Assembly: GCA_020161835.1 (NCBI GenBank)
Contig: JAIUNL010000008.1
Span: 84,552-148,551, forward strand
DNA length: 64,000 nt
From: Bacteroidota bacterium
GTDB lineage: Bacteria; Bacteroidota; JABWAT01
Direction of reading: 5' to 3'
Shown here piece by piece: positions 12,401-56,431 of this stretch; within the stretch, counting starts at the first letter, position 1, and each line of letters begins with the position of its first letter. Under the pieces are notes generated by a model that had not been told where the DNA came from, searched no databases, and saw only the letters and a list, made by a program, of their open reading frames with translations. The position numbers were made by a program, and so were the translations under genes.

Positions 12401-12683
12401 TACTTTAAAATCATGGCGTGAGGGAAGTGAAGTTTTTCTTTCTTTTACAGATGACGGAGCAGGGATTCCGGAGGGTGTTCTTCCCAAAATATTTGATCCG
12501 TTCTTTTCTACGAAGGAAATTGGCCAGGGTGTTGGGCTGGGATTGTTTGTTTGTTACGGAATCATAAAAGCACATCAAGGCCAGATCACGGTTTCAAGTA
12601 CATTGAAAAAGGGAACAACGGTAACGGTTATGCTACCGGTGCATCCGCCACTTCAGTCAAGTTCGGAACCTTCGGAAGCATGA
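9408..12683 (+). CDS. sensor histidine kinase with a periplasmic two-component-regulator propeller and Y_Y_Y domain; no receiver domain
   Basis: 1091 aa. It has a signal peptide and repeated WIGT..GL propeller blades, then a Y_Y_Y region, a TM helix and a coiled coil. The kinase core has a HisKA H-box (GIAHELNNPINYI) and HATPase_c N/G boxes (DDGAGIPE, GQGVGLGL). Confidence 0.8.
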   Translation: MNTSLRFLFSGILFLLFSSVNGQDLSQFTHEEWTTDDGLPQNTVLSVQQTKDGYIWLATYEGLVRFNGTEFKVFDKRNLPGLTNKSILSLTESSDSCLWIGTRLGVNRYKSGKLLSDSAVLQLKNQFVRAIHEDRQKTVWFATESGLGAYSKGLLKIYSTEDGLINPNITALEEDQEGRLWVGTSNGLQYFKDGKFFTPVVKSKLPNTFIRSLLVDRDNVVWVGTSNGLVKVINGIINSIPEQLTLPNQIITSLIEDQTGAIWIGTEAGLARWKDWDLSVFSVKDGLSNNKVRALFQDIEGTIWIGTNVGLNNLRQGRFTVITSQKGLSDDFVRTVYQDKNETIWVGTGAGLNAIGKNGIKTYPVSKGLPGEEIISLAGQDDGALIVGTGNNGFSVLRNGVFKNYTTNDGLLSNTVRAILPESNGKVWIGTNRGLNLFDGTGFTKFNSDEGLSGNIILSLAKDKSDRLWIGTASGLNSMTPDGKISVYRDSNGNLHSNVFCIYPDAGNNIWVGTDNGLLLFRNGKLVTFTIQDGLYDDIAFQILEDGPGNLWMSCNKGIYEVKKQDLLDYADGKLIRITCKVYGKSDGLKTSQCNGSSQPAGWRLKDGRLTFPTAKGVAVIYPEGGQLKNLVPPPVVIEKVLSFNEPVLIEEMINLEPGKKRFEFHFAALTFIEPEKVKFKYLLDGFDESWVDAGSRRVAYYTNLPPGNYTFRVIAANKDGVWNSEGASVSLYLEPFYYQTWWFWTLLGAFLISILAGLHFYRVNQLKFHEKRLQNQVAERTKAIFSEKEKAETALKTTEAAQQNLKIKTEELEQALVQLRKTQSQLIQSEKMISVGQLTAGIAHELNNPINYIFSAVLPLRRDVENLLATIEHLVDSFPGNREQINQILKLHDFYEVGEEIPVLLEGIEDGARRTDLIVRSLRNFSRLDEDIPKKIDLLLNIENTLFLLRNRIGEQITIIRDFEEIPMVDCYPGQLNQVFMNLLQNSLDAISGKGTLTLKSWREGSEVFLSFTDDGAGIPEGVLPKIFDPFFSTKEIGQGVGLGLFVCYGIIKAHQGQITVSSTLKKGTTVTVMLPVHPPLQSSSEPSEA

Positions 12684-15600
12684 TTGTAAAGCAGGAGCCT
12701 TTGCCAGGTTCACTGGTTACTGTAATTTTCCCCCGATGCCGCTGAATGATCTGGTAGGAGATTGAAAGCCCTAACCCGGTACCTTTTCCAACTGCTTTGG
12801 TTGTGAAAAACGGATCAAAAAGTTTTGATATATTGCCTTCAGGTATCCCAATTCCATTATCAGTAACCGATAAAATGACAAATTCTTCAGTTTCTGAAGA
12901 GTTTACCTCAATTATTCCAGTCGTCTCTATTGCCTGAATGGCATTCATCAGCACATTCATCAGAACCTGATTGATCTGCCCCGGGAAGCCTGTTATCAAT
13001 GAAGTGTGGTTAAATGCTGTTTTGATTTCTATCCGACCAGCGATTTCTTTCTCAAGTAATTTGAGAGTAATTTCAAATCCTTCTGAAAGGTCAAACACTT
13101 TCATATCATTTTCATCAACACGGGAAAAAGTACGCAGACTCTTAACAATATCAGAGGTTCTGCTGGCACCGCTTTCCATACCGGCAAACAACTGATCAAT
13201 CTCTGTTTTTAATTCCTCAGGTGAAATTGAATTTTTAAGTTTACTTATTTCAGCAAGAATTTTGTCAGCTTCTTCACTTTCAGGATCTTTTGTCAAAATT
13301 GTTTCGAGACGCTGGTATAAAATCAAATACTTCAAAAGTTCACCAACATCCTCTTTTAAAGGATAGATACTGGATTGAATGAAATTGACCGGATTATTAA
13401 TCTCGTGTGCAATTCCGGCTACCAATGTACCCAAAGACGCCATTTTTTCTGACTGGATGAGTTGAGTCTGAGACTGTTTAAGCTGTTCATAACTTGTAGC
13501 TAGCTCAGAGGTTTTCTCAAAAACCAGCTTTTCAAGCAGGATTTTTTCTTTCTGGGTTTTGGTAATCCGCCATTGGATGAAAAGGAAAATACTAAGAAGT
13601 AAAACGATCAGATAAACCGATCTTGCCCACCAGGTTGAGTACCAGGCCGGCAGGATTATAAATCCGGTTGAGGCAGATTCTGAGATAAGGCCATAAACAT
13701 TTTTACTTCTGACCTGAAACTGGTACTCACCAGCCGGCAGATTGGTAAATTCCTTAACGGTTTCAGATGTCCATACACTCCACTGATTACTAAATCCCAA
13801 CAGCCGATATTGAAACTCAGTTTTGCCGTCGCCATCAAATGTTGCAGAGGAGAAATGAAATTGCAGATTTCGTTGTGACCAGGGCAAAACAGGCCAACCG
13901 CTTACAGTTGAATCTGCAAGTGCAACCAAACCACTGTCAGATTTTACTTCTTTGATGTGTGTAAAAAAACTGGCTGAAATATTTTTTTCAATTGCCGAAC
14001 TATAACTGAAAATCCCGTTATCACCGCCAAACCAGGTCACGCCAGGATCTGATTCGGCAATAGACCAAATTCCGCCCAATGGTAATCGGTTAAAGGGAGC
14101 CGCCTGATATCTGTAAGTTCCTGATTTAGAGAATGTTACCAGAAAAACCTGTGAAGAATTGGTAACCCAAAGTGTTGAATCATTTCTTTGTCTGATAATA
14201 CTTGAGGCATCAATCAGTTCATTGGGGAAACCGGGTACCAATGAAAAAGGGCTTTGGTCATCTGGTTTTTGATAAAGACCAGAAACAGTAGAAATTACAA
14301 GTTTTCTTCTGAATTCAGAAGTAAAATTTTCGGCAGGGGGTAACCCATCCGCTTTATCAAAATGAGTGACTTCAGGGTTAAGCCAATTATCCTTTTCAAA
14401 TGTGAACCTGTTAACACCTTCATAAAAACTTCCTGACCAGATTCGGCCAGATTCATCTTCATTTAGGGAATAAATGCCGATTTTACTGTTATTTACCCTT
14501 CCAATTTGCCTGATCTTGTTTTTTTCCATCTGATAAACAAAAAGTCCATCAGGTGAACCTGAAAAAAGTATGCCGGGAAAACGTTTTGAAACCAGTAAGG
14601 TTGATTGATTGGCACTTACGATTTTATTGAGTTTTCCGTTTACCAATTGGAAGAGGCCATCACTTGAGGCGATAAGAATAGTATTTCCTGTTTGTTCAAG
14701 ATGCCAAACTTCACCTGAAAGGTCAGGTACCTGCTTAAACTCCAGATCTGTTTCTGAATTTGCAGAAGATCCGTTTGGCTCACGAAGTTCTGCGGTAAAA
14801 AGTCCGAACATGGTGCCGGCGTAAAGAACATCACGGGTGACAAGAATAGAAAGGACAATTCCCTTTATGCCGTTATTTTTCGAATAGTAACCCCATGGGG
14901 ACGGATATTCCACACGTGAAATTCCTTGTTCACCAGTTACCCATAACCCGTTTTCATGGTCTGATGTAACAGAATAAACAATATTTGAAGGCAATCCCTG
15001 TTTTTCTGAAAGAACAAAAACAATATTTCCTTCCTGATCGATGATCAGAACACCACCACGAATGGTTGGAATTGCAATATTCCCATTGCTGAGCAAGACC
15101 GGCTGAATGTAAGATTTGAATTTTTTCAGATAAGCAGAGGCTGGAGAATCTAAAAAAACCGGAATGTTATTCTTGAACTCAAAAAGCCCTTTGCTTTCTG
15201 AAATAAAAATGGTTCTGCCAGTTTTTGTTTTAAATCCAAACGGAATTTCTTCTTTCATGAAAACGGAGTGATCACTTATTCGCTTAACAATTTCCCCGGT
15301 TACTTGTAATAATCCAACTTCGTGTTCAAGAAGAAAGAGCGTATTTTCAACAGTAAAAAGGTTAGAAAAAACCTTTTTTTGGGGTTTGATTACCGTAATT
15401 GTTGAATAATCATACACGTATAACGCTTTGGCTGTCAGGAAGTAAATCCGGTTATCAAAACTTATTGTTTTCCAGACTTCATTAAATGAGCGGGCAGAAT
15501 CAGGAAGCAGAGAAAGAAGACTATGAAAAGAAAGTTTTCCATTTTTATCTGTTTCGAGAAAACCCAGATCACTTGTTCCTCCAACATAGACCTGCCTGTC

Positions 15601-15873
15601 ACTGCCAATTGCGAGTGATCTGACTACGCCATTTTGGGGTGTATCAATAAATGTCCAGTTTTTCCCGTCAAACTCAAGCACACCGCCACGGTTATTGCCA
15701 AAATACATCATGCCGTTCGGAGCCTGAACCGAGCAATAGGTTTGAGGATCAGCCTTATAATCTGAAGGACGGAAAATATGGATAAAAGGGGAGGAGAAGA
15801 CCGGATGAAATCCGGAAAGCAGGAATAAAATCAGAAACAATCTGGCTTTTTTAAGCGTTCGGATAATGATCAT
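12628..15873 (-). CDS. sensor histidine kinase with a periplasmic propeller and Y_Y_Y domain; paralog of 9408-12683
   Basis: 1081 aa with the same architecture as its neighbour. H-box [13 protein letters not shown]; G-boxes TDNGIGIPE and [10 protein letters not shown]. The 3' end overlaps the convergent paralog by 56 nt. Confidence 0.8.
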
Positions 15874-18485: not shown

Positions 18486-19256
18486 TTAAGATTTAAACAA
18501 CTCGTCAAGTGAAAGCGGACGGGAATTTTCCCATTGCCTGTCGAATTCAGCTTTGAGCTGATTGACCACTTTTTCATCATGAATTTCAAATGCTGCCTGC
18601 GGGGTATCACCGTGAATCAGCGGATAAACGTACATAATCGCCACAGAAAATCCGTCACGGGTTCCGAGAAAAAACATATTCACCGGAACGTAACTTTCAT
18701 CTGCAACCCGAACCTGCATTTTTTCACGGATGATGGTTTCAGAAGTTGACGATTTAAGTTTATTTGTGAAAACAGTGAGCCGTTCCATCCGGCGGCGATA
18801 TTGAAGAATCTGCTCGTCCGTTTTTCCTTCAAATACCAGAATTCTGACTTTCCGGATGCCGGTATCTTTGAAAATATCAACAAAATTGGGGAGTAAATCC
18901 TCATAGGCCAGGGTAAACGGTGCATTGAAGAAGGAAAATTCATTGCGAAAACCTGACCAAAGCGCAATATTTCTTGGGTTATCCTCAATCCGGATTCTGG
19001 GTTTCAATACTTTAGGTTCCAGGAAATAAGAATCAAGACGATCACGATTTGACTTGAGGATACTTTCAATTGCATCCATCCGGCTTGAAACCTGCCAGTT
19101 TTGGGCAACCATGTAAAAAACGAAGAGACATACAATCAGGAAAAGCATGGGAAGCAGAGCAGTTTCAGGCAAAATTCCCAAAGCATTGAGAATCAAAGCC
19201 GCGATGGCGCCGATGCCCCAGATCAAAGTTGAAAGATGAGTGATAAGCTTACGCAT
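18486..19256 (-). CDS. hypothetical membrane protein
   Basis: 256 aa with two N-terminal TM helices and then a soluble domain. I did not recognise a family. Confidence 0.4.
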   Translation of the reverse strand: MRKLITHLSTLIWGIGAIAALILNALGILPETALLPMLFLIVCLFVFYMVAQNWQVSSRMDAIESILKSNRDRLDSYFLEPKVLKPRIRIEDNPRNIALWSGFRNEFSFFNAPFTLAYEDLLPNFVDIFKDTGIRKVRILVFEGKTDEQILQYRRRMERLTVFTNKLKSSTSETIIREKMQVRVADESYVPVNMFFLGTRDGFSVAIMYVYPLIHGDTPQAAFEIHDEKVVNQLKAEFDRQWENSRPLSLDELFKS

Positions 19257-23215: not shown

Positions 23216-24073
23216 ATGGTTATTTCCGGGTCTGAATTCCTTGAACTTGCCTCAAAGGATACAAACACGTCCTTTCTTGGTGTAATTGGGAATCCAATTT
23301 CTCATTCCCGTTCACCCAAACTCCATTCCTTCATTTATTCTGCACTCGGTATCAAAGCCAGGTATTTTGCACTTTCTTTCGAAACAGACCTGAATCTTTC
23401 TGATTTTCTGGATGAATGTGAAAAACATCCAAACATTCCGGGATTTAATATCACCATTCCTTTTAAAGAAACGGTATTCAGAAAATTCCGCCCGGAAAAA
23501 TTGCTTCAAATTGGCTCTGTGAATACTCTGATTTCCCGTTCAGGACAATTTTTTGGGGAAAATACTGATTGGGTTGGCTTTGTAGATCCGATCAGAAAAG
23601 AAAACCTAAACTCAGCTCTTATTCTAGGTTGGGGTGGTGCAGCCAAAGGTGTTGTTTTTGGACTCAGAACCGTCTGGCCAAACTGTAAAATCACCATTGT
23701 AAGCAGAAAAAAACATGAAGAACTTGACGGGATTAATTGGATTATTTCAGATTATTCCGTGTTGCCTGAGTCACTTCCGCCAACAGATATCATAATCAAT
23801 ACAACACCACTCGGAATGACCGGGAAAACTGAGAACTTTTCGGACGTATTTCTGAAATTACTGCCTGAAACAAACTTTGCTTATGATATTATTTACACAC
23901 CTGCAGAAACCCGTTTTTTATCTTTCTTCAATGAAAAATCAATCAAGACACAAAATGGTTTAGATATGTTTATTGGCCAGGCTCTTGCCTCGCACGAACA
24001 GTGGTTCGGGAAACTTGATGGTCAAACGAAAATGGATTTGACTCTTTCACTTGCTCAATTCCTTCAGTCATGA
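23216..24073 (+). CDS. aroE: shikimate dehydrogenase
   Basis: 285 aa with the AroE N-terminal substrate motif GVIGNPISHSRSP and a central Rossmann GWGGAAKG. Confidence 0.8.
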   Translation: MVISGSEFLELASKDTNTSFLGVIGNPISHSRSPKLHSFIYSALGIKARYFALSFETDLNLSDFLDECEKHPNIPGFNITIPFKETVFRKFRPEKLLQIGSVNTLISRSGQFFGENTDWVGFVDPIRKENLNSALILGWGGAAKGVVFGLRTVWPNCKITIVSRKKHEELDGINWIISDYSVLPESLPPTDIIINTTPLGMTGKTENFSDVFLKLLPETNFAYDIIYTPAETRFLSFFNEKSIKTQNGLDMFIGQALASHEQWFGKLDGQTKMDLTLSLAQFLQS

Positions 24074-25197
24074 CGACTCTCCTTTGCCTTTGTCTTTTTC
24101 TTCAAAGCCAGACACTAAATTTGTTTGGACTTCAAGTTCCGGTTAATCCTGTTCACATTGAATGGGCAAAATCAGAAAAGAAAATAGATTTGCTTGATAA
24201 TCAGTTTGAATGGGTTGCCGAAGACCTGGTTTCAGAATCTCTTAATTGGAAGACCTTAACGGATTGGCAAAAAATCAGGCTTTCAATTGCTTATTCTGGG
24301 GTATTATTCCCCAACCAGGACTCTAAATCAAGTAAATTAACCTATTTTATCTGGAAAAAATGGGGTTTTGATACGGAGTGGGTGAAAACAGATTCTGGGT
24401 TAAGAGTTCCGCTTATTGCCATTCACCAGCAACTATTCGGACTTCAATTCTACCGAATTTCAGGGAAAAAATTCTATGACGTTTTAAAACTGACCCAGAC
24501 AGAAAAGCTAAACGGGAAAATTAAAATCACGCTTGAAGAAACAGAATCTGAAGAGGATTCCGGTTTAAAACCTGCTTTTATCGATTTGTCACAACTTCCC
24601 GTTATTTCAGAATCAAAATCTGAAAAGAAACTGGACTGGATTTTCAAAGAGAAAACCTACTCTTTAACGGTAGAAATTAACCGGAATCTGGCTGATTATT
24701 ATCTGAGTTTACCCAATATCCGGTTTCAGGACGCCTTGTTATACCGGTTTTCACCTGGCCTGCTGCGCTCTTTGGTTATTCCACTAAAAGCCCTGATGAA
24801 AGAAAATGGGTTAACTGAACACGAAAAAGTGGAATGCATCAGGCAAATGCTACTGCAATGTTTTCCTTACATTGACGATCAGGTTTTGTTTGGATATGAG
24901 CATCTTCAGTTTCCCGAAGAAATTTTGCTTTCTGATGGGTGTGATTGTGAAGACCGGTCGGTTTTCATGTTCAAACTTGTTGAACAATTGACTACCTTAA
25001 AACCCTTGCTGGCAGACTTTCCTGAACATGTCAGTTTACTGATTACTGCTCCGGAAGGTTGGCAGGGTGAAGTGTATGAGTTTGACTCAAGATATTTTGT
25101 TTACTGCGACCCAACCTATTTTAATGCACCGTTTGGTGAAACACCGGCCGAAATCAAAGAATTAATCCCGGAAATCATTGATTATGACGAAAAATAA
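24070..25197 (+). CDS. hypothetical protein with a possible transglutaminase-like Cys core near the C-terminus
   Basis: 375 aa. The segment SDGCDCEDRSVFMFKLVEQL resembles a transglutaminase-like cysteine-protease core, but the rest was not recognised. Confidence 0.35.
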   Translation: MTTLLCLCLFLQSQTLNLFGLQVPVNPVHIEWAKSEKKIDLLDNQFEWVAEDLVSESLNWKTLTDWQKIRLSIAYSGVLFPNQDSKSSKLTYFIWKKWGFDTEWVKTDSGLRVPLIAIHQQLFGLQFYRISGKKFYDVLKLTQTEKLNGKIKITLEETESEEDSGLKPAFIDLSQLPVISESKSEKKLDWIFKEKTYSLTVEINRNLADYYLSLPNIRFQDALLYRFSPGLLRSLVIPLKALMKENGLTEHEKVECIRQMLLQCFPYIDDQVLFGYEHLQFPEEILLSDGCDCEDRSVFMFKLVEQLTTLKPLLADFPEHVSLLITAPEGWQGEVYEFDSRYFVYCDPTYFNAPFGETPAEIKELIPEIIDYDEK

Positions 25198-32160: not shown

Positions 32161-32475
32161 TCAATCAACTACAACCATCCCTTTACCGATGGTTCTGTTT
32201 TTCCCCTCTGAAAAAATATTTACAAAATAAATCCCATCAACAACCCTGTTCTTCTCATTGTCATTCCGATCCCATATATACCTTAATTCCCGTTTTTCTT
32301 CCAGTGAAAGGGTATCCTGTCTGATTTTGGTATCAAACTCATTGGTGATATTTGCAACCACCAAATCAGACTCATAAGTACCTTCAAATACGATTGAACC
32401 GGGAATAGTAATGTAAGAATTGTCCTGGCAGGACGAAAAAAACAGAATCAGGGTAAAAAATAGAAACTTTTTCAT
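32161..32475 (-). CDS. small lipoprotein consisting essentially of a T9SS-CTD-like / FlgD-Ig-like beta-sandwich (copy A)
   Basis: 104 aa with a lipobox (LILFFSSC). The C-terminus RYIWDRNDNEKNRVVDGIYFVNIF...GKGMVVVD parallels the peptidase CTD SSGIYFVQI...RKMVVLK. Confidence 0.45.
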   Translation of the reverse strand: MKKFLFFTLILFFSSCQDNSYITIPGSIVFEGTYESDLVVANITNEFDTKIRQDTLSLEEKRELRYIWDRNDNEKNRVVDGIYFVNIFSEGKNRTIGKGMVVVD

Positions 32476-33260
32476 AAGATAATTCCAAATAATACCGAAA
32501 TCCGGAACGCATTGAGATCGGGAGAATAATCAGATGGATCAAAACCGGGTTTTTTCTCACCATAAATTCTTGTACTGATTGTAAATTGGTATCCGGCCCT
32601 CAACTCCATAAAAACAGAACCGGTTGTTGAATTAAACTTTCCGGCCATCAGGTTAACAACTGCCAGATAGGATTCTGTTTTCAATTTAGAACTTACATGA
32701 CCAACTGAACCAAGGTTATATTTATAATCGAGTTCACTTTTTCGGGTATCTGAAATCAGGATAACACCCAAACCAACCCCTGCATATGCGTTGGAAGCTG
32801 AATACATCTTTGTTCTAAACTGAAATAATTTATCAAATTGAACAAGAAAAACATTCATGTCATGAGTAAGGTAAAAGGAAGTTCCTTCACCAAAAAGTTT
32901 AAATGTTGTATTTGACAGTCTGTCTTGTTGGTACTCAAACACAATTCGGGAATTTGCATAAGGCAGAAAAATCCCGAGCCCACCACGTAAACTTGCACCT
33001 GGTGTTAAATCCCGAATTTCAGAACCAGACGAGTATTCACTCAAATTTTTGATCAGCTCATTTTCATTATCCATATTATATGCAGTATAACCCAGGCTAA
33101 GAAAAGGCAAAAACACAACATCAGGGGGAATTTTACTTTTTTTATAAAAAATTCCATCTACCCCGGGTTCACTATTTTCCTGAGCAAAAAGGTTAAGACT
33201 GCTAATAGAAATCCAAACAGTAACCCATAAAAAAAATCTGGCAGAGAAACCTTTCATCAC
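32472..33260 (-). CDS. outer-membrane beta-barrel protein (OMP_b-brl_2 / PorT-PorP-like), copy A
   Basis: 262 aa with a signal peptide (...LNLFAQE). It shows the alternating amphipathic beta-strand pattern and ends in aromatic/hydrophobic residues (...RISVLFGIIL). It is a paralog of 33553-34320. Confidence 0.5.
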   Translation of the reverse strand: MMKGFSARFFLWVTVWISISSLNLFAQENSEPGVDGIFYKKSKIPPDVVFLPFLSLGYTAYNMDNENELIKNLSEYSSGSEIRDLTPGASLRGGLGIFLPYANSRIVFEYQQDRLSNTTFKLFGEGTSFYLTHDMNVFLVQFDKLFQFRTKMYSASNAYAGVGLGVILISDTRKSELDYKYNLGSVGHVSSKLKTESYLAVVNLMAGKFNSTTGSVFMELRAGYQFTISTRIYGEKKPGFDPSDYSPDLNAFRISVLFGIIL

Positions 33261-33556
33261 CGTTTTATAATGGCTGCAGTACTGGATATAATTTCATCAT
33301 CAACAGTAATGGTGATCAGGTACAATCCGTTAGAAACCTGAATTTCTGATGAATTTTTACCGTTCCATGTGTATTTTGATGTGCCAGCCGGCAGATTTTC
33401 CTGTTTAATGATTGTTTGGTAGGTGTTGGTTACAGTTGCAAGTCCAGCCTTGGGGAGTGATGAAAATTCAAGTTCATCAGATCCGGTAAATGATTCCTGC
33501 GAATCGCAGGCGAAAAGAATGAAAATGAGTGAAAGGGAAAGAATAAGATTTTTCAT
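33257..33556 (-). CDS. small lipoprotein with a T9SS-CTD-like / FlgD-Ig-like C-terminus (copy B)
   Basis: 99 aa with a lipobox (ILFACDSQE). The C-terminus reads YTWNGKNSSEIQVSNGLYLITITVDDEIISSTAAIIKR. Confidence 0.45.
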   Translation of the reverse strand: MKNLILSLSLIFILFACDSQESFTGSDELEFSSLPKAGLATVTNTYQTIIKQENLPAGTSKYTWNGKNSSEIQVSNGLYLITITVDDEIISSTAAIIKR

Positions 33557-34320
33557 AGGGCAAGTCCGAGATGAATTGAAAGTTTAATTCCACTGTAATC
33601 GGGTTTGAAGCTTTTTGCAGAACGTCCTGTTTTTTTGCTGGAATCAACTGTGAAACCGGTTTCAACCTGATATCCAAGCCTGAATTCTGAATAGGTCACA
33701 CCATTTTGATAAAACTTTCCGATTACAGCCTGAATGCCGGCAACCTGGGCATTAATGTCAAGATCTTCCTTGAATTCTTCATCACTTCCACTTTTTCTGA
33801 AGGTTACTGTTTCACTTCGGGTATCAAAAATCCAGCCGTAACTTCCGCCAAGTCCGTAATACAAATCTTTATCAGCAACATCATGCCAGAACAATTTATC
33901 GGCATGCAGGTTCACAGTTGTTACTGAATGGTTGAGATAATAACCGGTATTGTCAAAGGCTTTCAACATAAAATCAAGGAAAAAGAAAGGAATTTTAACC
34001 CCTTCGTTTCCATAATTATCCCATCTGATATCTGAATACAGGCGAATCATCGGGTCATGAAACAAGAGTCCGAATCCGACCTGACTTGAAATCCCACCTG
34101 ATGGATTTGAAAGATCCGCAAGTTTTCCCGTTTCCTTCAGATTGTCAATCAGAGTTATTTCATTTTCCATTTTATAAAATGTATAACCCAGACCACCCTG
34201 AACCAAAACTGACATTGTTTTTTCGCTCCTGATTCCCTTTGAGGGCTGAGCAGACAGATCAATTGCCAAAAATGTTACAATTGAAAAAAGTAAGGTAGCA
34301 TTAATAAATAGTCGAGGCAT
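33553..34320 (-). CDS. outer-membrane beta-barrel protein (OMP_b-brl_2 / PorT-PorP-like), copy B. The likely start is the internal Met (MPRLFINATLLFSIVTFLAIDLSAQ); the ORF track extends to 34386.
   Basis: It has a signal peptide and shares collinear motifs with copy A (LGYT.Y.M.NE..LI.NL.E, DKLF, LGYQ, and the C-terminal PDYS.....L.L). Confidence 0.5.
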   Translation of the reverse strand: MPRLFINATLLFSIVTFLAIDLSAQPSKGIRSEKTMSVLVQGGLGYTFYKMENEITLIDNLKETGKLADLSNPSGGISSQVGFGLLFHDPMIRLYSDIRWDNYGNEGVKIPFFFLDFMLKAFDNTGYYLNHSVTTVNLHADKLFWHDVADKDLYYGLGGSYGWIFDTRSETVTFRKSGSDEEFKEDLDINAQVAGIQAVIGKFYQNGVTYSEFRLGYQVETGFTVDSSKKTGRSAKSFKPDYSGIKLSIHLGLAL

Positions 34321-34324
34321 TGAA

Positions 34325-35779
34325 TTAACTCCGTTTTTTAAGAACAACAATATTTTCAATGTGATAGGTATGCGGGAACATGTCAACAGGCCTGATATAC
34401 GTTAGGTCATAATTAAAAGATGCAATAATCTTTAAATCTCTGGCTTGAGTCATGGGGTTACAGGAAATATAAAGAATCCGGTCAGCACCAAATTGTGGCA
34501 GAAACCGGGCAGTTTCTTCTGTTAATCCTGCTCTGGGCGGATCAACAACGATAATATCTGGTTTCCCAATATTTTCTTCCCACTGCTTTAACAGATCAAG
34601 ACTTTTTCCGATATCTCCCTGAACAAACGAAGCGTTGTTTATTCCGTTTGCACGGGCATTTTCAATGGCATTTTCCACTGCTTCCGGAATCAGTTCAATA
34701 CCCGCAACTTTTTTAACCCGGTTGGCCGCCATCAAACCGATTGTTCCCGGTCCGCAGAAAAGATCAAAAAGAATATCGGTCTCTTTTAGATTTGCTGCTT
34801 CAAATGCTGTTGCAAATAAGACTTCGGCCTGAAGTGAATTGGTTTGGAAAAAAGAATTCGGATGAATAATAAATTCAACTCCAAGTAATTTTTCAGTTAA
34901 AACACCTGAACCGAAAACTGTGATTTCTCCTTCACCTTTTGGCACAGGACCTTTACCTGAATGAAGAATATTGACAAAACTTTTGATCTCTGGAATGTCA
35001 TGCTTAAATAAATCAGCAAGTTTCCGGTTAAATTCAGAATCTTCGTATGTCGTGACGAGAATGACCATTAAATCGCCGGTATTTATACCAAACCGTAAGA
35101 TTAAAGATCTGAGAAAACCAGTATGACTTTTCGAAGAGTAGGGCAGAACTCCATTTTCGAAACAAAACGATTTCACCAGATTTAAAATCCGGTTACCCGT
35201 TTCAGGTTGAATATGGCAGGCATCAAGGTCAACCAATTTGTCATACCGGCCAGGGACGTGAAGCCCAAGAGCAAATCCTTCCGGTTTTTCGATTCCGTTT
35301 TTAATTTCAGATGAAGTTAGCCATCGTGAATCAGAAAAAGTAAAATCCATCTTATTGCGGTAATTAAACGGATTTCCCACACCAATAATTGGCAAAACCT
35401 GGGGATTTTCAAATCCACCTACCCTGACAAGGGCATCAATGACTTGTTGATGTTTGGCTTTTAACTGTGTCTCATAGGAAATATGTTGCCATTTACATCC
35501 GCCACATTCACCAAAATGGCTGCAAACCGGCTTAATTCTTGATGGTCCGGGTTTAAGAAGTGATTTAATCCAACCTTCAGCGTAGGATGATTTTACTTTG
35601 GTAATTTCAACTTCAACAAGATCACCAGGTGCTGCCATTGGAAGAAAAACAACAAAATCATTGATTCTGGCAATGCTTTTGCCTTCAAAACCAATAGAAT
35701 CTATGGTTAATGTTACCATATCACCCTTTTTTACCGGTTTTTCTTTAAGGGTTGCTTCAGGTTCGTTAGGATTTTCCAT
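34325..35779 (-). CDS. rlmD: 23S rRNA (uracil-C5)-methyltransferase, RlmD/RumA family
   Basis: 484 aa with an N-terminal TRAM domain and a 4Fe-4S Cys cluster (CSHFGECGGCKWQ). The class I SAM MTase has the DPPRAG motif and the catalytic Cys near the C-terminus. Confidence 0.8.
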   Translation of the reverse strand: MENPNEPEATLKEKPVKKGDMVTLTIDSIGFEGKSIARINDFVVFLPMAAPGDLVEVEITKVKSSYAEGWIKSLLKPGPSRIKPVCSHFGECGGCKWQHISYETQLKAKHQQVIDALVRVGGFENPQVLPIIGVGNPFNYRNKMDFTFSDSRWLTSSEIKNGIEKPEGFALGLHVPGRYDKLVDLDACHIQPETGNRILNLVKSFCFENGVLPYSSKSHTGFLRSLILRFGINTGDLMVILVTTYEDSEFNRKLADLFKHDIPEIKSFVNILHSGKGPVPKGEGEITVFGSGVLTEKLLGVEFIIHPNSFFQTNSLQAEVLFATAFEAANLKETDILFDLFCGPGTIGLMAANRVKKVAGIELIPEAVENAIENARANGINNASFVQGDIGKSLDLLKQWEENIGKPDIIVVDPPRAGLTEETARFLPQFGADRILYISCNPMTQARDLKIIASFNYDLTYIRPVDMFPHTYHIENIVVLKKRS

Positions 35780-35897: not shown

Positions 35898-36482
35898 ATG
35901 AATACACTTAACGGGTCAGCCGTCTGTCTGAATTCCGTTGTCATCCTGATCTTGGGGGCACGTGCTTCCGGCAAATCAACACTGGCATACAATCTTGTAA
36001 AGCGGGGTGCTTCATGGCTTGGAGACGGTCTGCTCAGTATAGGGGCTGAACTGCCAAAACAGTTTATTTATCCAGATTCGTCAAGTGAGCAATTGGTTCT
36101 TAGATTCCCCACACTTTTTCAGGAATTGGTTCCGCCAAATTACCTCAGTGAAGTCAGATCATCTGATTCACAGCTCATTCTTACATTAAATCTTCCCCGA
36201 ATTTTTCCGCTTCAAAAAAAGATCACTGTACCTGTTCCACCCGATATGATTATCTGGACTGAAAAATCATCACAGCTCCATTCCAGTCTTTATCCGGTGC
36301 CGGTTAGTGAACTGCGGTCATTGACAGCTCAAAGTCAACTGGTACTGCCCGACCGGGGTGTTACCGGCTGGAAATTTATTTCAGGTTCCGGTTTCGAGAA
36401 CCGTGAACAGATTATTGCTAAACTTGAAAAACTGACTGCCGAATTGGGTTTTCACAGGAAAACCCTAACCAGCGTTCAGTAA
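35898..36482 (+). CDS. stand-alone HPr kinase/phosphorylase C-terminal-domain-like P-loop protein
   Basis: 194 aa. The segment VVILILGARASGKSTLAYNLVKRGASWLGDGLLSI parallels the HprK C-domain [30 protein letters not shown]. No HprK N-domain is present. Confidence 0.45.
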   Translation: MNTLNGSAVCLNSVVILILGARASGKSTLAYNLVKRGASWLGDGLLSIGAELPKQFIYPDSSSEQLVLRFPTLFQELVPPNYLSEVRSSDSQLILTLNLPRIFPLQKKITVPVPPDMIIWTEKSSQLHSSLYPVPVSELRSLTAQSQLVLPDRGVTGWKFISGSGFENREQIIAKLEKLTAELGFHRKTLTSVQ

Positions 36483-38600: not shown

Positions 38601-39062
38601 TTATCGGGAAGAAGAAGCTGCTTCTGTTAGTTTAACTGGGTTTTGTTCAGTGCTTACCGGCTCAAATCGGACGTTAAAAAACTGTCCGGATGGACTAGTA
38701 CCAATAACTGCTTTCGTCCAAAAAATGCCAATTACTGATTTGGTTCCCGGTTTTAAGGTAGTGAGACTCTTCACACTGTTTTCATCTGCCTCAGGGCTTA
38801 GCATGAAAGTAAACCAGGCACGGTTGGCAGACTCATTTCTAATCTCGACGTAGTATCCCGCCTTATTTTCAACTTCATCAGCCTTGGCAAATGAAATCCG
38901 GTAAGATAAACTGGGTTCAGTTGGGTGTTCTTTCCAGGGTGTCCATTCTTTCTGAGCATAAGCAGCAGAAGAGAATACTACTGATAAAAGAAAAAATGAA
39001 ATTATTGTTTTATACTTCAACATAAGGCCTCCAAAACTGGAAAACGGTTTTAATTGCAGCAA
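38601..39062 (-). CDS. hypothetical secreted protein
   Basis: 153 aa with a signal peptide (...SSAAYAQKE). No family was recognised. Confidence 0.35.
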   Translation of the reverse strand: MLQLKPFSSFGGLMLKYKTIISFFLLSVVFSSAAYAQKEWTPWKEHPTEPSLSYRISFAKADEVENKAGYYVEIRNESANRAWFTFMLSPEADENSVKSLTTLKPGTKSVIGIFWTKAVIGTSPSGQFFNVRFEPVSTEQNPVKLTEAASSSR

Positions 39063-51516: not shown

Positions 51517-52497
51517 CTACCTGAAAAATTTGAGTTTAGTAGAAATTTTCTGACTAATAAACTTAGTAAAGGAATATTTCACCTTTGAAGGTAAAGACCT
51601 CATTCCATATGCATTCATTGACATTGCAAATGAGGGTTCAAAGTAGCAATTCACAGTACAACCCTGACAAAAGTTATATTTCCCCTGCATACTTTCAGCG
51701 GCTTTTACAGTCTGTGATTGGCGTTGGTCATAAAGATCACCATTGAGCTGTATTTTCTGGTTATTAAAATGGTAACAAGGCAGAAGCAGCTCATTTCGGG
51801 CACTGATTACTACAGTGGTGCTCACCGCCTTGCAAACCGGATCGGCGATTTGATTTCCACCATTTCTTCTTAGATCTATAAAGGCGGGATTCAAATAGGT
51901 TCCTGGTGTATTTGTATAACTCTCAAGAATATCTAAAACTTCAGGCGTAAGTTGCCCGCCACGGTCACCGTAACTGAAAAGAGGGTTGATGATCAGGATC
52001 ACCCCATGTTTGCGGGCCAGGTCAATCATGGCTGGTAAATGATGCACATTCTCATTTCTTACAGTAAAATGCAAATCTGGTCGTTCGCCTAAAGACAAAG
52101 CCAGCTCAATACTTGCAAAAACTGAGTCGTAACATTTTACACCACGGTGAAGATCATGTTCTTCCTTAACTGGCGAATCAAGTGAAAAATGAAGAAGGTC
52201 AATTAACCCCTTTATAGATTCTGCTTTTTTGGGATATAAAAGTCCGTTTGACGTGATGGTTGTAAGAAACCCCTTTGATTTCGCCATTCTGAGCAAGACA
52301 TCAATTTGAGGATGAAGAAGGGGTTCACCACCCGTGAAGTCCAATACTTTAACTCCCAGCCTCTTGAGATCTGTCAGATTCTTTTCAGCATCAGTGAGAT
52401 CAATAAAGGGTGATTTGAAGTCCTCCCAGATGTCACAGAAATCACAGCTGGCATTACACTTGTTGGTAACATAATAGTTAGCGAGAACGGGGTTCAA
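51517..52497 (-). CDS. radical SAM enzyme with a possible auxiliary-cluster (twitch/SPASM-like) C-terminus
   Basis: 326 aa with a CNASCDFC (CxxxCxxC) cluster near the N-terminus and a GGEPLL SAM motif. The C-terminus has CQGCTVNC. It is the last gene of the minus-strand operon. Confidence 0.75.
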   Translation of the reverse strand: MNPVLANYYVTNKCNASCDFCDIWEDFKSPFIDLTDAEKNLTDLKRLGVKVLDFTGGEPLLHPQIDVLLRMAKSKGFLTTITSNGLLYPKKAESIKGLIDLLHFSLDSPVKEEHDLHRGVKCYDSVFASIELALSLGERPDLHFTVRNENVHHLPAMIDLARKHGVILIINPLFSYGDRGGQLTPEVLDILESYTNTPGTYLNPAFIDLRRNGGNQIADPVCKAVSTTVVISARNELLLPCYHFNNQKIQLNGDLYDQRQSQTVKAAESMQGKYNFCQGCTVNCYFEPSFAMSMNAYGMRSLPSKVKYSFTKFISQKISTKLKFFR

Positions 52498-53599
52498 AGT
52501 ATTCTCTGCCTTTCCATTTAACTTTCCTGCTAAACAGGGTCATGATGGGAATTGATAAATTAATAAGCGGGTAAACCAGTTCATAAAGCACAAATGCCTT
52601 TGGTTTGAATATTATTTCCGTCTGGCGTGCGAATTGCCGGATGAGGAAGAAATCTGCTGATAGTTTAACAACTGCTGAAATAATGGTCAGCCACGGATTC
52701 AATATCCAGCCAAAAATGACAGAAAGGTGCAGACCGACCGCCGAAATTACCAGCAACCAACTTCTTACAGGACTTTTAACTCCACCCAGAATCCAACGTT
52801 TTCGTTGTAAAACTAATTCCGGCCACGATTGATTTGAACGTGTAATATGTATATTCTGAGGAGTTGATGAGAAAATAACTGCCTTGCCAGAATTGAGAAA
52901 TAACCTGAAAAGTGCAAAATCTTCAGTGATAGTAAAGGGCAGACTCCTGAAACCACCCAATTCCAGATAATCCTTTTTAAGAAAAGCCATATTATTGCCA
53001 ATGGCCGTAAACGGGTGACCTGAGTGATGACTACCAGAGGCAATTGCCATCATATAAAACCAGTCAGTTTCCTGAACTGCACCTAAAAATCCGGTTGAAT
53101 CTGAAACAGTTGGACCGCATACCATTGCAAGGCTGGCATTTTCTTTAAATCTGTCTTCAAGAAACGTGATCCAATCCGGGTTCAAAACCATATCAGCATC
53201 AGTTGTGACTATAATCGAAAAACTGGAATTCTGAATGCCAGTATCAAGTGCAAAAGGTTTCCCTGATTCATCTTTCATTCTTGAAACTTTAACCCATTCG
53301 AAATCGATTGTGAACTGGTTCAAAAGGAGTTCAGATCCATCATCTGAATGGTCGTCAACAAAAATGACTTCAAACCCACAGTTTGGGCGTTTCATTGCCT
53401 CAAGGTTTAAAATCAGATTTTTGAGATTTGAGATTTCATTTCTTACCGGAATAATAAGAGAAATTCCATCGACAGACTTTTTTTCTCTTTCAACAACTCG
53501 TGATACTGCTTGTTTTTTCAATCCGGAAAGAATTCTAAGGCTTTCAAGAAGATAAATTGCAGTCAGAACCCAGAAAATTATTTCAAGGACGGAAGACAT
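52478..53599 (-). CDS. membrane glycosyltransferase family 2 (processive-type D, DxD, TED, QxxRW signature)
   Basis: 373 aa with an N-terminal TM helix followed by the GT2 catalytic domain (FVDDHSDDGS, TTDADMV, TITEDFALF, QRKRWILGG). The C-terminal part contains 3-4 TM helices. Confidence 0.75.
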   Translation of the reverse strand: MSSVLEIIFWVLTAIYLLESLRILSGLKKQAVSRVVEREKKSVDGISLIIPVRNEISNLKNLILNLEAMKRPNCGFEVIFVDDHSDDGSELLLNQFTIDFEWVKVSRMKDESGKPFALDTGIQNSSFSIIVTTDADMVLNPDWITFLEDRFKENASLAMVCGPTVSDSTGFLGAVQETDWFYMMAIASGSHHSGHPFTAIGNNMAFLKKDYLELGGFRSLPFTITEDFALFRLFLNSGKAVIFSSTPQNIHITRSNQSWPELVLQRKRWILGGVKSPVRSWLLVISAVGLHLSVIFGWILNPWLTIISAVVKLSADFFLIRQFARQTEIIFKPKAFVLYELVYPLINLSIPIMTLFSRKVKWKGREYFEPRSR

Positions 53600-54234
53600 G
53601 ATAACTCAAAATTATGTTCGGTACAAATAAGTTTTACCCGTAAAAGTGATTCTTTAAGGCGATCCTTGTATTCCGGTTTATCATGAAACACAAGTATAAC
53701 TCCATTCTTCAGCCATTCTTTTTTCCGTCTGCTAATCTCATCAGGTGAAAAATCAGGCAGCCAGTCTTTAAACATGAAATTCCAAAAAATAAGATGAAAT
53801 CCATTTTGAGTTAACCTTTTATTCAACCCAGGTTTCCATGCTCCGTAGGGTGGTCTGAACCAGGACTGGAATTCAGGTAAATGCATGACCTGAAGCGAAT
53901 CAAGTTGAGTAAGTTCTTCCTGAATCTCAAAATCTGAAAGCCTTGAATATTTCCTATGAGTATAACCATGGAAGGCAGCGAACTGAGAACCAAGCTGACT
54001 AAAAACAGTTGGACGTTGTTTAATTTTTTCGCCAGGCCAGAAATGAGTTGCCTGAATCTGGTTTTCATTCATCCAGTGAAGCAGGTTCGGTGTATTGTCA
54101 TTTGGACCATCATCAATAGTCAGGTAAATAACCTTCCGGTTACTCTGACCTTTAAAATAAAAACCCGGAGTGTGAAACCGGTAAAGAAGCAATGTCAGCC
54201 AGTTCATAACCATCAGTAGCGAACACCTTTCCAA
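53578..54234 (-). CDS. NodB-homology polysaccharide deacetylase, apparently cytoplasmic
   Basis: 218 aa. VIYLTIDDGPNDNTPNLLHWMNENQIQATHF matches NodB motif 1 (TFDDGP), with H..H and later motifs. There is no convincing signal peptide. Confidence 0.75.
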   Translation of the reverse strand: MERCSLLMVMNWLTLLLYRFHTPGFYFKGQSNRKVIYLTIDDGPNDNTPNLLHWMNENQIQATHFWPGEKIKQRPTVFSQLGSQFAAFHGYTHRKYSRLSDFEIQEELTQLDSLQVMHLPEFQSWFRPPYGAWKPGLNKRLTQNGFHLIFWNFMFKDWLPDFSPDEISRRKKEWLKNGVILVFHDKPEYKDRLKESLLRVKLICTEHNFELSCLPSLK

Positions 54235-55340
54235 TCAAATCGGGAAAATGTCCCCATAAAACCCGTAAAAACCAGGTAGGGGATTTGAATCCATCCAAAC
54301 CAGAGAACCGAAAACGGATTAATTTTCTGATTAAGGAAACTGTTTGATGTAGAAAGAAAAAATGCATCACCGGCAAATTTCAGAAGTAAGATGAAACCTA
54401 TAAAACCCCAGGTCACCAGATTAAAGAAAGCAAAAACAGGCATGACTAAAAATAAAACGTGGATGAACCAGAATAAAGAGAGAAAAACCTTGTAACGGCC
54501 TGACTGGTAGTGAAAACCCTTACTTGCCCATCTTTTGCGCTGATTGAACAATGATGTCCAGTCTGGTTGGGCATGGGTAAGAACCAAAGCTTCTCTGGTC
54601 GGCAGATATTGAATCCCGTCTTTAAACATCGAATGAATTTTGTGCATGAGAAGTTCATCGTCCCCACTGATCAGGTGATCAATACCTGAAAACCCATCCA
54701 CAGCAGAAAAAGCTGACTTCCTGATCCAGAGATTTGCTCCATTGATTGTAGATGGCTGGTTGTGCCCACTTGAACCGCCTGCGACAACCATTAATCCTGC
54801 AAATTCAAGATGTTGCCAGGAGGATAAAAACGATCCCTTACGAAAAAATTCCACGGGTCCTGCAATCAATTGTGAAGAGTTTGAAACCGCCTGGGTAAAA
54901 ACGGAAACCCAGGTTCGGGGAACCAGACAATCTGCATCGGTAAAGGCAATCCAGTCTCCCTTTGCTACCGAAAGTGCGCACTGAATCGCACGTTTTTTAG
55001 GACTTTTTATTCCTGAATAGTGTGGAAAGTTTTGGGTCTGGATGGGTATTATGATTGGATTCTGAATTGAAAGCTCTGTAATCAGTTTAAACGTCTGATC
55101 AGTTGAAAAGTCATCTACAACAATAATTTCGGTGATTAATTTTTTGTTTTCGGGTACGAGCAAAGAATTCAGGCAGGTAAGGATGTTAGATTCTTCATTT
55201 CTTGCTGCAATTATAACCGAAACAGAAGGAGGGGGGAATTTATTAGTTTTGAATTCAGTATCAAGTTTTTTAAAGCCGGTAAGGTACCATAACAGTGCAG
55301 AGAGGTAAAAAATGCAGGCACCAACCAGTACAACTTCCAT
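54213..55340 (-). CDS. membrane glycosyltransferase family 2 (D, DxD, QxxRW)
   Basis: 375 aa with an N-terminal TM helix, then the GT2 catalytic domain (VVDDFSTDQT, FTDADCLVP, SGDDELLMHKI, NQRKRWASKG) and 4 C-terminal TM helices. Confidence 0.75.
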   Translation of the reverse strand: MEVVLVGACIFYLSALLWYLTGFKKLDTEFKTNKFPPPSVSVIIAARNEESNILTCLNSLLVPENKKLITEIIVVDDFSTDQTFKLITELSIQNPIIIPIQTQNFPHYSGIKSPKKRAIQCALSVAKGDWIAFTDADCLVPRTWVSVFTQAVSNSSQLIAGPVEFFRKGSFLSSWQHLEFAGLMVVAGGSSGHNQPSTINGANLWIRKSAFSAVDGFSGIDHLISGDDELLMHKIHSMFKDGIQYLPTREALVLTHAQPDWTSLFNQRKRWASKGFHYQSGRYKVFLSLFWFIHVLFLVMPVFAFFNLVTWGFIGFILLLKFAGDAFFLSTSNSFLNQKINPFSVLWFGWIQIPYLVFTGFMGTFSRFDWKGVRY

Positions 55341-56404: not shown

Positions 56405-56431
56405 ATAATTATTTTCCGAGAAAAGAGCTTG

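Follow-up and report, generated by a model that had tools for sequence, protein, structure and literature searches.

Stable complexes between surface lipoproteins and outer membrane (OM) β-barrels have been called a hallmark of the Bacteroidota, and the S-layer lipoprotein Bt1927 is encoded next to a predicted eight-stranded barrel partner, Bt1926 (PMC12578637; PMC4611039). The genome studied here, from an uncultured, deep-branching member of the Bacteroidota, contains two tandem copies of a gene pair in which a lipoprotein with a lipobox and an Ig-like domain is encoded beside a barrel, as in surface lipoprotein-barrel systems. We propose, with a probability of roughly 45%, that each pair encodes a minimal two-subunit complex of an OM barrel and a surface lipoprotein, comparable to Bt1926/Bt1927.

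Layout of the cassette

The cassette consists of four co-directional genes that are translationally coupled and form two paralogous pairs. Positions below are those of the window, by which we mean the whole 64-kb stretch of DNA analysed.

34325..35779, minus strand: RlmD-like gene with TRAM and m5U methyltransferase domains, according to the Pfam annotation of its orthologues
33553..34320, minus strand: OMP-B, a 255-aa precursor read from ATG, predicted eight-stranded OM β-barrel
33257..33556, minus strand: LipoB, a 99-aa lipoprotein precursor sharing an ATGA overlap with OMP-B
32472..33260, minus strand: OMP-A, paralogue of OMP-B, 262 aa with a GTG start, 261 aa if read from the ATG at the next codon
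32161..32475, minus strand: LipoA, a 104-aa paralogue of LipoB and partner of OMP-A, with which it shares an ATGA overlap

The junctions within the cassette read ATGA, GTGA (or TGATG) and ATGA, confirming the four minus-strand reading frames and the 4-nt overlaps of the original prediction. A longer OMP-B frame that starts at TTG and extends to 34386 found no support, because the orthologues measure 254-259 aa. The stop codon of the rlmD-like gene lies 4 nt upstream of the OMP-B start codon, and this gene is probably co-transcribed with the cassette. It is found upstream at every locus with an identifiable upstream gene, at intergenic distances of -4 to +78 nt, and is a conserved neighbour with no functional part in the cassette. 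At one locus (L013) the upstream gene is uncharacterised and 55% identical to the rlmD-like gene.

The barrel and its lipoprotein partner

OMP-B begins with an SPI signal peptide that is predicted to be cleaved between LSA and Q, and the Gln at the predicted signal peptidase I site is invariant in 14/14 barrels. An invariant Gln after the cleavage site fits the 'Q-rule' of the Bacteroidetes. The mature barrels comprise ~230 aa, rather than the ~250 aa first estimated. Beyond the signal peptide, an AF2 model of moderate confidence, built on an alignment of only 8 sequences and with pLDDT below 50 in loop L2 and at the N-terminus, predicts eight antiparallel membrane-spanning strands, which places the proteins in the class of eight-stranded OM β-barrels. 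Long loop L1 contains a conserved helix (M.NE..LI.NL) and long loop L4 a conserved motif (KK.G...Y.PD). With conservation scores of 1.69 for the L1 helix and 1.95 for L4, the long loops are conserved about as strongly as the strands (1.3-2.1), and the short turns score 0.1-0.55. Three motifs ascribed to both barrels (LGYT.Y.M.NE..LI.NL, DKLF and GYQ) are indeed common to them; the C-terminal PDYS..L..L is present in copy B but not in copy A, which reads SDYSPDLN.

Searches with the barrel point to a family of its own. Exhaustive HMMER searching returned only 7 clusters, all of them members of the same family, and a PDB profile search gave no match. Among Pfam models, PF13505 and PF13568 (OMP_b-brl_2) each matched a single one of the 14 barrels (E = 0.0021 and E = 0.13, respectively). 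The cassette adds a previously unclassified eight-stranded barrel family, from a deep-branching uncultured class of the Bacteroidota.

The lipobox Cys is invariant in all 16 lipoproteins (the lipobox is LFAC in LipoB and FSSC in LipoA), and because the signal peptide ends in this residue it is of the SPII type. In LipoB the Cys is followed by the acidic stretch DSQES, a linker of ~10 residues and an Ig-like β-sandwich at residues 27-99, modelled by AF2 with pLDDT above 93 in blocks spanning residues 31-90. The best relative of the lipoproteins is the Ig-like domain of FlgD, whether judged by Pfam, NCBIfam, PDB profile or Foldseek searches, and T9SS CTDs such as that of PorZ come second. The FlgD_ig model (PF13860) scored 26.7 bits with LipoB and 18.1 bits with LipoA, against a gathering score of 27, and was matched at E ≤ 1 by 15 of the 16 lipoproteins (best E = 5.5e-7); it also appears in the precomputed annotation of orthologues P0015-P0018 and P0022. 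FlgD was likewise retrieved by the PDB profile search (E = 1.2e-3), and Foldseek aligned LipoB with Pseudomonas aeruginosa FlgD (E = 1.5e-3) and with PorZ (E = 5.1e-3), consistent with an FlgD-like Ig sandwich. AF2, Foldseek and Pfam agree with the original prediction that these proteins contain hardly anything besides a signal peptide and a β-sandwich of the FlgD-Ig/CTD-like type.

According to the proposed model, the eight-stranded barrel would depend on Sec and signal peptidase I for export and on BAM for insertion. The downstream gene, which overlaps that of the barrel, would supply its lipid-anchored Ig-like partner of ~80 residues in a matching quantity. The lipoprotein would most likely be flipped to the cell surface, since the acidic residues after the lipidated Cys resemble the export signal of Bacteroidota. 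It would then dock on the conserved long loops of the barrel, namely the L1 helix and the L4 motif. The barrel would serve as its anchor or as a partner in assembly, and the exposed, faster-changing face would be formed by the Ig domain. The outward orientation assigned to the loops follows, by analogy, the general rule for OM barrels. Possible cellular roles include a structural envelope protein, an adhesin or receptor, or OmpW/AlkL-like uptake of small hydrophobic molecules. The pore of an eight-stranded barrel is too small to help a lipoprotein across the membrane, which counts against the proposed complex.

Asp or Glu occurs at positions +2 to +6 after the Cys in 15/16 lipoproteins, and several have two or three acidic residues in the post-Cys stretch (DSQES, EDDSY, QSEED, KDEIK; with the Cys, for example, CQSEED and CKDE). 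The only other predicted lipoprotein in the window, which is presumably periplasmic because it has a SPOR domain, reads CGSSGS, without acidic residues (a control of n = 1). Known export signals in Bacteroidota are C-X-K-(D/E)2, SDDDD and SDDFE (PMC5080379). The match to the published consensus (a polar residue or Lys, then at least two Asp/Glu) is loose, since only some of the lipoproteins fit it strictly, and the signal may differ in this class.

The same residues can be read the other way. Asp directly after the Cys is an inner-membrane retention signal in E. coli, and several of the lipoproteins have Asp or Glu at this position. The lipoprotein could accordingly sit in the OM inner leaflet, or in the inner membrane via Asp at +2, and touch the barrel from the periplasm or via its N-terminal linker. 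The pair would then serve envelope integrity or sense stress, in loose analogy to RcsF and OmpA, whose format of small lipoprotein plus eight-stranded barrel it resembles. We consider this arrangement unlikely. The periplasmic turns are the least conserved parts of the barrel, whereas the long loops are conserved; the acidic stretch fits the Bacteroidota export signal; the linker spans only ~10 residues; and no similarity to RcsF or to peptidoglycan-binding domains was found in Pfam or NCBIfam.

Joint evolution of the barrel and lipoprotein genes

Conservation of the pair was examined in detail at 10 loci with 14 barrel genes. A lipoprotein gene adjoins the barrel gene in 14/14 cases; the barrel comes first in 13 of these, with a 4-nt overlap in 12 of the 13. 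Adjacency is kept across lineages in which barrel identity falls to 25-35%, and the pairing recurs as a unit in every relative found.

OMP-A and OMP-B are 26% identical over 217 aa (E = 3e-18) and LipoA and LipoB 24% identical (E = 1e-7), which bears out both the claimed paralogies and the description of the locus as a tandemly duplicated two-gene cassette. Orthologues of OMP-A were recognised (P0007, P0008 and P0012), and LipoA clusters with the A-type lipoproteins of loci L006 and L001. The distance matrices of barrels and lipoproteins correlate with r = 0.90, a value reached in 0/5000 permutations, and swapping the A and B partners lowers the correlation to r = 0.30. Shared phylogeny accounts for part of the high correlation; the swap control argues for co-duplication. 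Because the two matrices mirror each other, the pair was duplicated as a unit, an event that we would place early in the lineage; joint duplication occurred at least once and possibly twice (L015). Copy A has been lost in one sublineage, and barrel and lipoprotein disappeared together in L005 and L008.

Relative to an 88%-identical locus (L006), dN/dS was 0.055, 0.14, 0.16 and 0.15 for the four genes (0.16 for OMP-A and 0.15 for LipoA), which indicates purifying selection on each of them. Both genes of each pair share their evolutionary rate, copy A changing ~3.5 times faster than copy B at non-synonymous sites. Copy A is dispensable, and copy B is constrained as tightly as housekeeping genes.

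These patterns bear on a second alternative, namely that two unrelated envelope proteins share an operon: a generic OmpA/OmpX/OmpW-like barrel, structural or serving as a small-molecule channel, and an independent Ig-fold surface lipoprotein, with no specific complex between them. Both folds are common and work alone in other bacteria. Nevertheless, strict adjacency despite the divergence of the barrels, overlapping start and stop codons, joint duplication, joint loss and matching rates all argue against this alternative, and we regard it as quite unlikely.

Relation to T9SS sorting domains and to known systems

The original prediction had framed the lipoproteins as T9SS CTDs and the pair in terms of PorP/SprF and cargo. 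On that reading, the lipoprotein would be a free-standing CTD-like domain recognised by, or competing for, the CTD-binding machinery. Its barrel would retain it in the manner of PorQ, which holds the uncleaved CTD of PorZ, making the pair an adaptor, anchor, decoy or regulator. OM barrels such as PorV and PorQ bind CTDs through their loops. At least one genuine T9SS cargo is encoded in this genome, the neighbouring S8 peptidase, which served as positive control for the type A models (Por_Secre_tail, 48 bits). The claim that the lipoprotein C-termini track the CTD of this peptidase stood in part: the family aligns in register with its last 52 residues, but weakly (hhalign probability 74.8%; pairwise E = 2.6e-5; 23% identity). 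The N-terminal part of a CTD, which reads YPNPANP in the S8 peptidase, is absent from the lipoproteins. Weak matches to the C-terminal end of the PorZ model were also obtained with 7/16 lipoproteins (best E = 3.2e-4).

The type A CTD models themselves did not recognise the family. At E ≤ 1, PF18962 matched 0/16 lipoproteins and TIGR04183 one (LipoB, 13.2 bits against a cutoff of 23, with no match for LipoA), and the type B model TIGR04131 was absent from the list of 20 families obtained with the 16 lipoproteins. Type A CTDs combine a position at the extreme C-terminus with an SPI signal; the lipoproteins have the position, but their signal is SPII. The invariant lipobox implies handling as a lipoprotein, and CTD cleavage would leave just a lipopeptide. 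As for the barrel, it is eight-stranded, and neither PorP/SprF (TIGR03519), PorT nor PorG was matched in NCBIfam by the 14 barrels at E ≤ 1, nor was similarity to PorV or PorQ found. No T9SS machinery gene was found within the window. The S8 peptidase is separated from the cassette by a convergent glgX-like gene and is no longer adjacent in the distant relatives L013 and L014, indicating ordinary synteny. Given the failure of the CTD models, the missing YPNPANP motif, a barrel unlike PorP/SprF and the ordinary synteny of the S8 peptidase, a T9SS role is speculation rather than the best reading, and we judge it very unlikely. Most doubtful of all is the notion of a free-standing, lipid-anchored relative of T9SS sorting domains, bound by the barrel loops as PorV and PorQ bind CTDs. 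Such a pair would either stand midway in evolution between surface lipoprotein-barrel complexes and the recognition of CTDs by shuttles, or modulate T9SS cargo recognition, or act as a decoy in it, in this lineage only.

If the barrel-surface lipoprotein complex that we favour is real, it would be about the smallest such unit known (~230 + ~80 mature residues), a size at which it would be a tractable system for studying how Bacteroidota flip lipoproteins to the surface and join them to their barrels. Its general importance is limited, because it is a lineage-restricted envelope module without an assigned role.

Among known systems, the small eight-stranded barrels (OmpA N-domain, OmpX, NspA, OmpW, PagL, TtoA and Legionella porin III) show no significant sequence similarity to the cassette barrel, which has its own loop helix and L4 motif, lacks a PagL-type His-x-Ser and invariably has a lipoprotein gene beside its own. 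The lipoproteins gave no DUF3244 Pfam match at E ≤ 1, in contrast to the small DUF3244 Ig-fold proteins of Bacteroides (BT_1867, BT_3571; PDB 4g5a, 3sd2, 3d33). With type A CTDs (TIGR04183/PF18962), among them those that PorZ and PorU retain, they share a G.Y..x.I motif and an Ig-like sandwich that is comparable in size and lies at the very C-terminus; they differ in the type of signal peptide and in a partner barrel that is not PorV-, PorQ- or PorP-like. With FlgD (PF13860) they share the motif W..G/D....G..V..G.Y; they are stand-alone proteins, without the Tudor domain of FlgD and without a flagellar context. Bt1926/Bt1927 of Bacteroides thetaiotaomicron differs from the cassette in the size of its lipoprotein, ~100 kDa as opposed to a single Ig domain of ~80 mature residues, and the cassette is duplicated, without a phase-variable promoter and confined to one uncultured lineage. 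In both systems the complex is a proposal. Their likeness, which does not come from sequence, lies in a barrel gene beside a lipoprotein gene, a predicted eight strands, a barrel proposed as anchor or partner, and an acidic stretch after the lipidated Cys.

Gene anatomy and paralogy of the tandem cassettes

Each cassette pairs the gene of a predicted eight-stranded barrel (OMP) with that of a small lipoprotein (Lipo), and the window carries two cassettes, A and B, as follows.

32161-32475, minus strand: LipoA, ORF of 104 aa
32472-33260, minus strand: OMP-A, ORF of 262 aa from GTG or 261 aa from an ATG one codon in
33257-33556, minus strand: LipoB, ORF of 99 aa
33553-34320, minus strand: OMP-B, ORF of 255 aa from ATG
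34325-35779, co-directional with the cassettes: RlmD-like TRAM/m5U-methyltransferase gene, upstream of OMP-B

The original prediction of four minus-strand genes joined by start/stop overlaps holds at these coordinates, as does the proposed paralogy: pairwise alignment of OMP-A and OMP-B gave E=3e-18 (26% identity across 217 residues) and that of LipoA and LipoB gave E=1e-7 (24% identity). At the junctions the window reads ccctATGAaa, cgGTGATGAaa and cttATGAaa, so that the four genes are translationally coupled; the stop codon of the RlmD-like gene lies 4 nt from the OMP-B start. A longer OMP-B ORF, from a TTG and extending to 34386, was rejected since it would run into the upstream gene and is used by none of the orthologues (all 254-259 aa).

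Purifying selection acts on all four cassette genes. Against L006, the locus of an 88%-identical relative, dN/dS was 0.055 for OMP-B, 0.14 for LipoB, 0.16 for OMP-A and 0.15 for LipoA, and 0.068 and 0.030 for the flanking rlmD-like and glgX-like genes, ratios that are approximate with dS close to saturation.

Pairing, duplication and loss in relatives

The locus of every cassette member found was looked up, covering 14 barrels and 16 lipoproteins.

Cassette arrangement in the window and in the loci of relatives (L001-L016)
Window: two cassettes
L006/L007: two cassettes; OMP-B identity 88%
L010: two cassettes; 75% identity; contig ends inside OMP-A
L001-L004 (GCA_023151185.1): two cassettes; 52% identity
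L005 (GCA_017303995.1) and L008/L009 (SRR33126934 for L008): single cassette, B; 71-72% identity
L011/L012, L013, L014: single cassette; distant relatives
L015/L016: OMP-Lipo-Lipo-OMP (L015:3160-5376)

All 14 barrel genes adjoin a lipoprotein gene, 13 of them in the order barrel then lipoprotein and 12 of those with a 4-nt overlap, so that the pairing, whose conservation had been left as a check, recurs throughout the relatives. Every two-cassette locus has the order rlmD, OMP-B, LipoB, OMP-A, LipoA. The distance matrices of barrels and lipoproteins are correlated at r=0.90, a value reached in 0 of 5000 permutations, and the correlation falls to r=0.30 when A and B partners are swapped; the two genes of the cassette were thus duplicated together, before the lineages of the window and L001 split, in keeping with the tandem two-gene duplication originally predicted. 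Since the more distant L001 keeps both cassettes, cassette A was lost secondarily in the L005/L008 branch. The B-only stretches are L005:6001-7064 and L008:5001-6061, where the convergent glgX-like gene ends 27 nt beyond the cassette. In L015 the second pair is inverted (Lipo 4300-4605, then OMP 4609-5376), and the L015/L016 arrangement suggests an independent duplication or a cassette rearrangement. For both genes copy A is the faster-evolving one: comparison of the window with L006 gave identities of 64% and 63% for the A pair and of 88% and 80% for the B pair.

The cassette neighbourhood is syntenic, with an HPr-kinase-C-like gene, HAD, DeoC, a SPOR lipoprotein and UvrB. At the distant loci RlmD is 49-60% identical whereas the barrel is only 27-37% identical. 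The module appears to be vertically inherited, and it changes more quickly than the genes around it, a common trait of envelope proteins. Functional links to three neighbours were considered and rejected. The order relative to rlmD is conserved, but so is the whole neighbourhood (HPrK-like, HAD, DeoC), and vertical inheritance accounts for it; the neighbouring S8 peptidase, a T9SS cargo, is missing in L013 and L014; and the glgX-like gene between this peptidase and the cassettes is convergent.

Other genes of the window are housekeeping (aminoacyl-tRNA synthetases, sensor kinases, FolD, an Mla-like transporter, CarA, a glycosyltransferase cluster, BshC); the 64 kb contain no T9SS machinery gene, and an Rfam scan gave zero matches. 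Divergent from rlmD, and kept beside the cassette in all relatives, is a 194-aa protein (35898-36482, plus strand) whose orthologues match only the C-terminal domain of HPr kinase, with a faint ScmC match. Two convergent paralogous sensor histidine kinases of ~1085 aa (Reg_prop/Y_Y_Y/HATPase; 9408-12683, plus strand, and 12628-15873, minus strand) overlap by 56 nt at their 3′ ends. A co-directional minus-strand cluster (51517-57463) encodes a radical SAM protein, three GT2 glycosyltransferases, a polysaccharide deacetylase and an LPG_synthase_TM-like membrane protein, with a glycolipid of the envelope or an exopolysaccharide as its possible product. Three ORFs lacked a Pfam match at E<=1e-5: 38601-39062 (minus strand), 18486-19256 (minus strand) and 24070-25197 (plus strand). 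The first has a signal-peptide-like N-terminus, and in related loci its place, flanked by the SPOR-lipoprotein gene and uvrB, is taken by a gene of 132-140 aa that also lacks a Pfam match.

The barrel and lipoprotein families

Neither Pfam nor NCBIfam recognizes a family for OMP-A or OMP-B. The first reading had likened the barrels in size to PorT/PorP and named PorP/SprF, PorT and OMP_b-brl_2 as models to compare; scans of the 14 members gave zero matches to PorP/SprF, PorT or PorG, a single OMP_b-brl_2 match (E=0.13) and a single weak OMP_b-brl match (E=0.0021), and these identities were dropped. Word-indexed searches of 5.8 billion proteins returned 6 and 2 matches for the barrels, and a third word-indexed search in the wider family hunt returned 9. 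HMMER profile searching, run exhaustively against 1.84 billion representatives, returned 7 clusters, every one of the barrel family. The family occurs in 2 species (2 loci) among 185,579 GTDB species genomes, and a PDB sequence search found no relative. Judged from these searches, it appears to be tiny, lineage-restricted and unclassified. The only named relative, UWPOB_BACT1, belongs to Bacteroidota by GTDB, its class unassigned (PMC8103865).

Among the 14 aligned barrels R93, H131, R168 and E212 are invariant and D166, Y127 and Y217 nearly so; these polar residues may build a network of salt bridges in the lumen, or else a functional site. A PagL-like catalytic barrel was ruled out on sequence, as no conserved Ser follows the invariant His131 (the residue at H131+2 is S, D, N, R, Q or K), and R93, H131, D166/R168 and E212 more likely make up a lumen network. 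A Gln at the predicted signal peptidase I site is invariant (14/14), and N-terminal Gln on mature exported proteins is a Bacteroidetes habit that it fits.

The small proteins had been called lipoproteins, and a lipobox Cys at position 16-17 is kept in 16/16. An AlphaFold2 model of LipoB has a flexible linker (residues 18-23, pLDDT <50) followed by a confident beta-sandwich (10-residue blocks over residues 31-90, each with pLDDT >93). The nearest sequence relative of this domain appears to be the FlgD Ig-like domain, with T9SS sorting domains second. PF13860 (FlgD Ig-like) was matched by 15 of the 16 lipoproteins (best E=5.5e-7; LipoB 26.7 bits and LipoA 18.1 against a cutoff of 27), NCBIfam FlgD models likewise by 15/16, and a PDB profile search found FlgD chains (E=1.2e-3 to 9e-3). 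The C-terminal end of the PorZ model was matched by 7/16 (best E=3.2e-4). Profile-profile comparison with the C-terminal sorting domain (CTD) of the S8 peptidase family gave 74.8% probability over 52 columns that stay in register up to the extreme C-terminus; this alignment is limited to the C-terminal half and the YPNPANP part is missing. The CTD models themselves argued against type A or type B identity: TIGR04183 was matched by 1/16 at 13 bits against a cutoff of 23, PF18962 by 0/16, and TIGR04131 was absent from the families listed for the 16 proteins. Thus the description of these proteins as a signal peptide plus a CTD/FlgD-Ig-like sandwich was right as a statement of fold, given the FlgD-Ig, PorZ and S8-CTD matches and the modelled sandwich, but the domain falls short of a T9SS sorting signal. 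A local CTD HMM run over the window found the S8 peptidase CTD alone.

A proposed two-subunit outer membrane complex

The best-supported reading is that each cassette encodes a two-subunit outer membrane complex of barrel and lipoprotein. The overlapping genes would deliver the subunits in matched amounts, the barrel would be inserted by BAM and the lipoprotein lipidated at its invariant Cys; the short linker of ~10 residues would place the Ig domain immediately above the membrane, at the level of the conserved L1 helix (M.NE..LI.NL) and L4 (KK.G...Y.PD) of the barrel. The analysis establishes the gene anatomy, the folds, the lipobox, the pairing, the co-duplication and the selection, whereas we infer that the subunits form a complex, that it faces the cell surface and where the lipoprotein docks. 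Barrel topology was taken from the standard for outer membrane barrels, with termini and short turns periplasmic and long loops outside, and sum-of-pairs conservation was 1.69 for the L1 helix, 1.95 for L4, 1.3-2.1 for the strands, 0.9 for loop L2 and 0.1-0.55 for the periplasmic turns. Long loops this conserved are uncommon among small barrels and point to a putative binding surface. Acidic residues follow the Cys in 15/16 lipoproteins (e.g. DSQES, EDDSY, QSEED, KDEIK), and this stretch resembles the lipoprotein export signals of Bacteroidota, namely C-X-K-(D/E)2 or Q-A-(D/E)2 in Capnocytophaga, SDDDD in B. fragilis and SDDFE in F. johnsoniae (PMC5080379). The sole other predicted lipoprotein of the window, presumably periplasmic with its SPOR domain, reads CGSSGS, a control of n=1.

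A pair facing the periplasm, of the RcsF/OmpA type, is unlikely and fits poorly, the periplasmic turns being the least conserved parts of the barrel. It is rather less probable that barrel and lipoprotein are two independent proteins, a reading disfavoured by the fact that their genes are strictly adjacent, overlap, were duplicated and lost together and evolve at matched rates. The T9SS adaptor or decoy of the original prediction could draw on the weak CTD similarity of the lipoproteins and on the T9SS cargo nearby; however, the CTD membership tests failed, the lipoprotein would have to act as T9SS cargo, the barrel is of the wrong kind and the S8 neighbour is not kept in L013 or L014, making it improbable. 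Least probable is that a dedicated barrel holds a lipid-anchored relative of the CTD, a reading that, if true, would link surface-lipoprotein-barrel complexes with T9SS CTD recognition.

The barrel-lipoprotein complex may serve as a structural protein of the envelope or as an adhesin or receptor; alternatively, it may involve a partner to a hydrophobic uptake barrel of the OmpW/AlkL kind. New here are an unclassified barrel family confined to one lineage, a stand-alone FlgD-Ig-type lipoprotein as the obligate gene partner of a barrel, the very small size of the unit and its duplication as a pair. Neither fold is out of the ordinary, and barrels accompanied by lipoproteins are familiar in Bacteroidota. 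The LipoB model is similar to Bacteroides DUF3244 proteins (BT_1867, 4g5a; BT_3571, 3sd2; 3d33), which are stand-alone Ig-fold proteins of similar size. The proposed complex agrees with the assemblies of barrel and surface lipoprotein that have been described as a hallmark of the phylum, and Bt1926/Bt1927, a predicted eight-stranded barrel adjoining a surface lipoprotein, provides a direct precedent (PMC12578637; PMC4611039).
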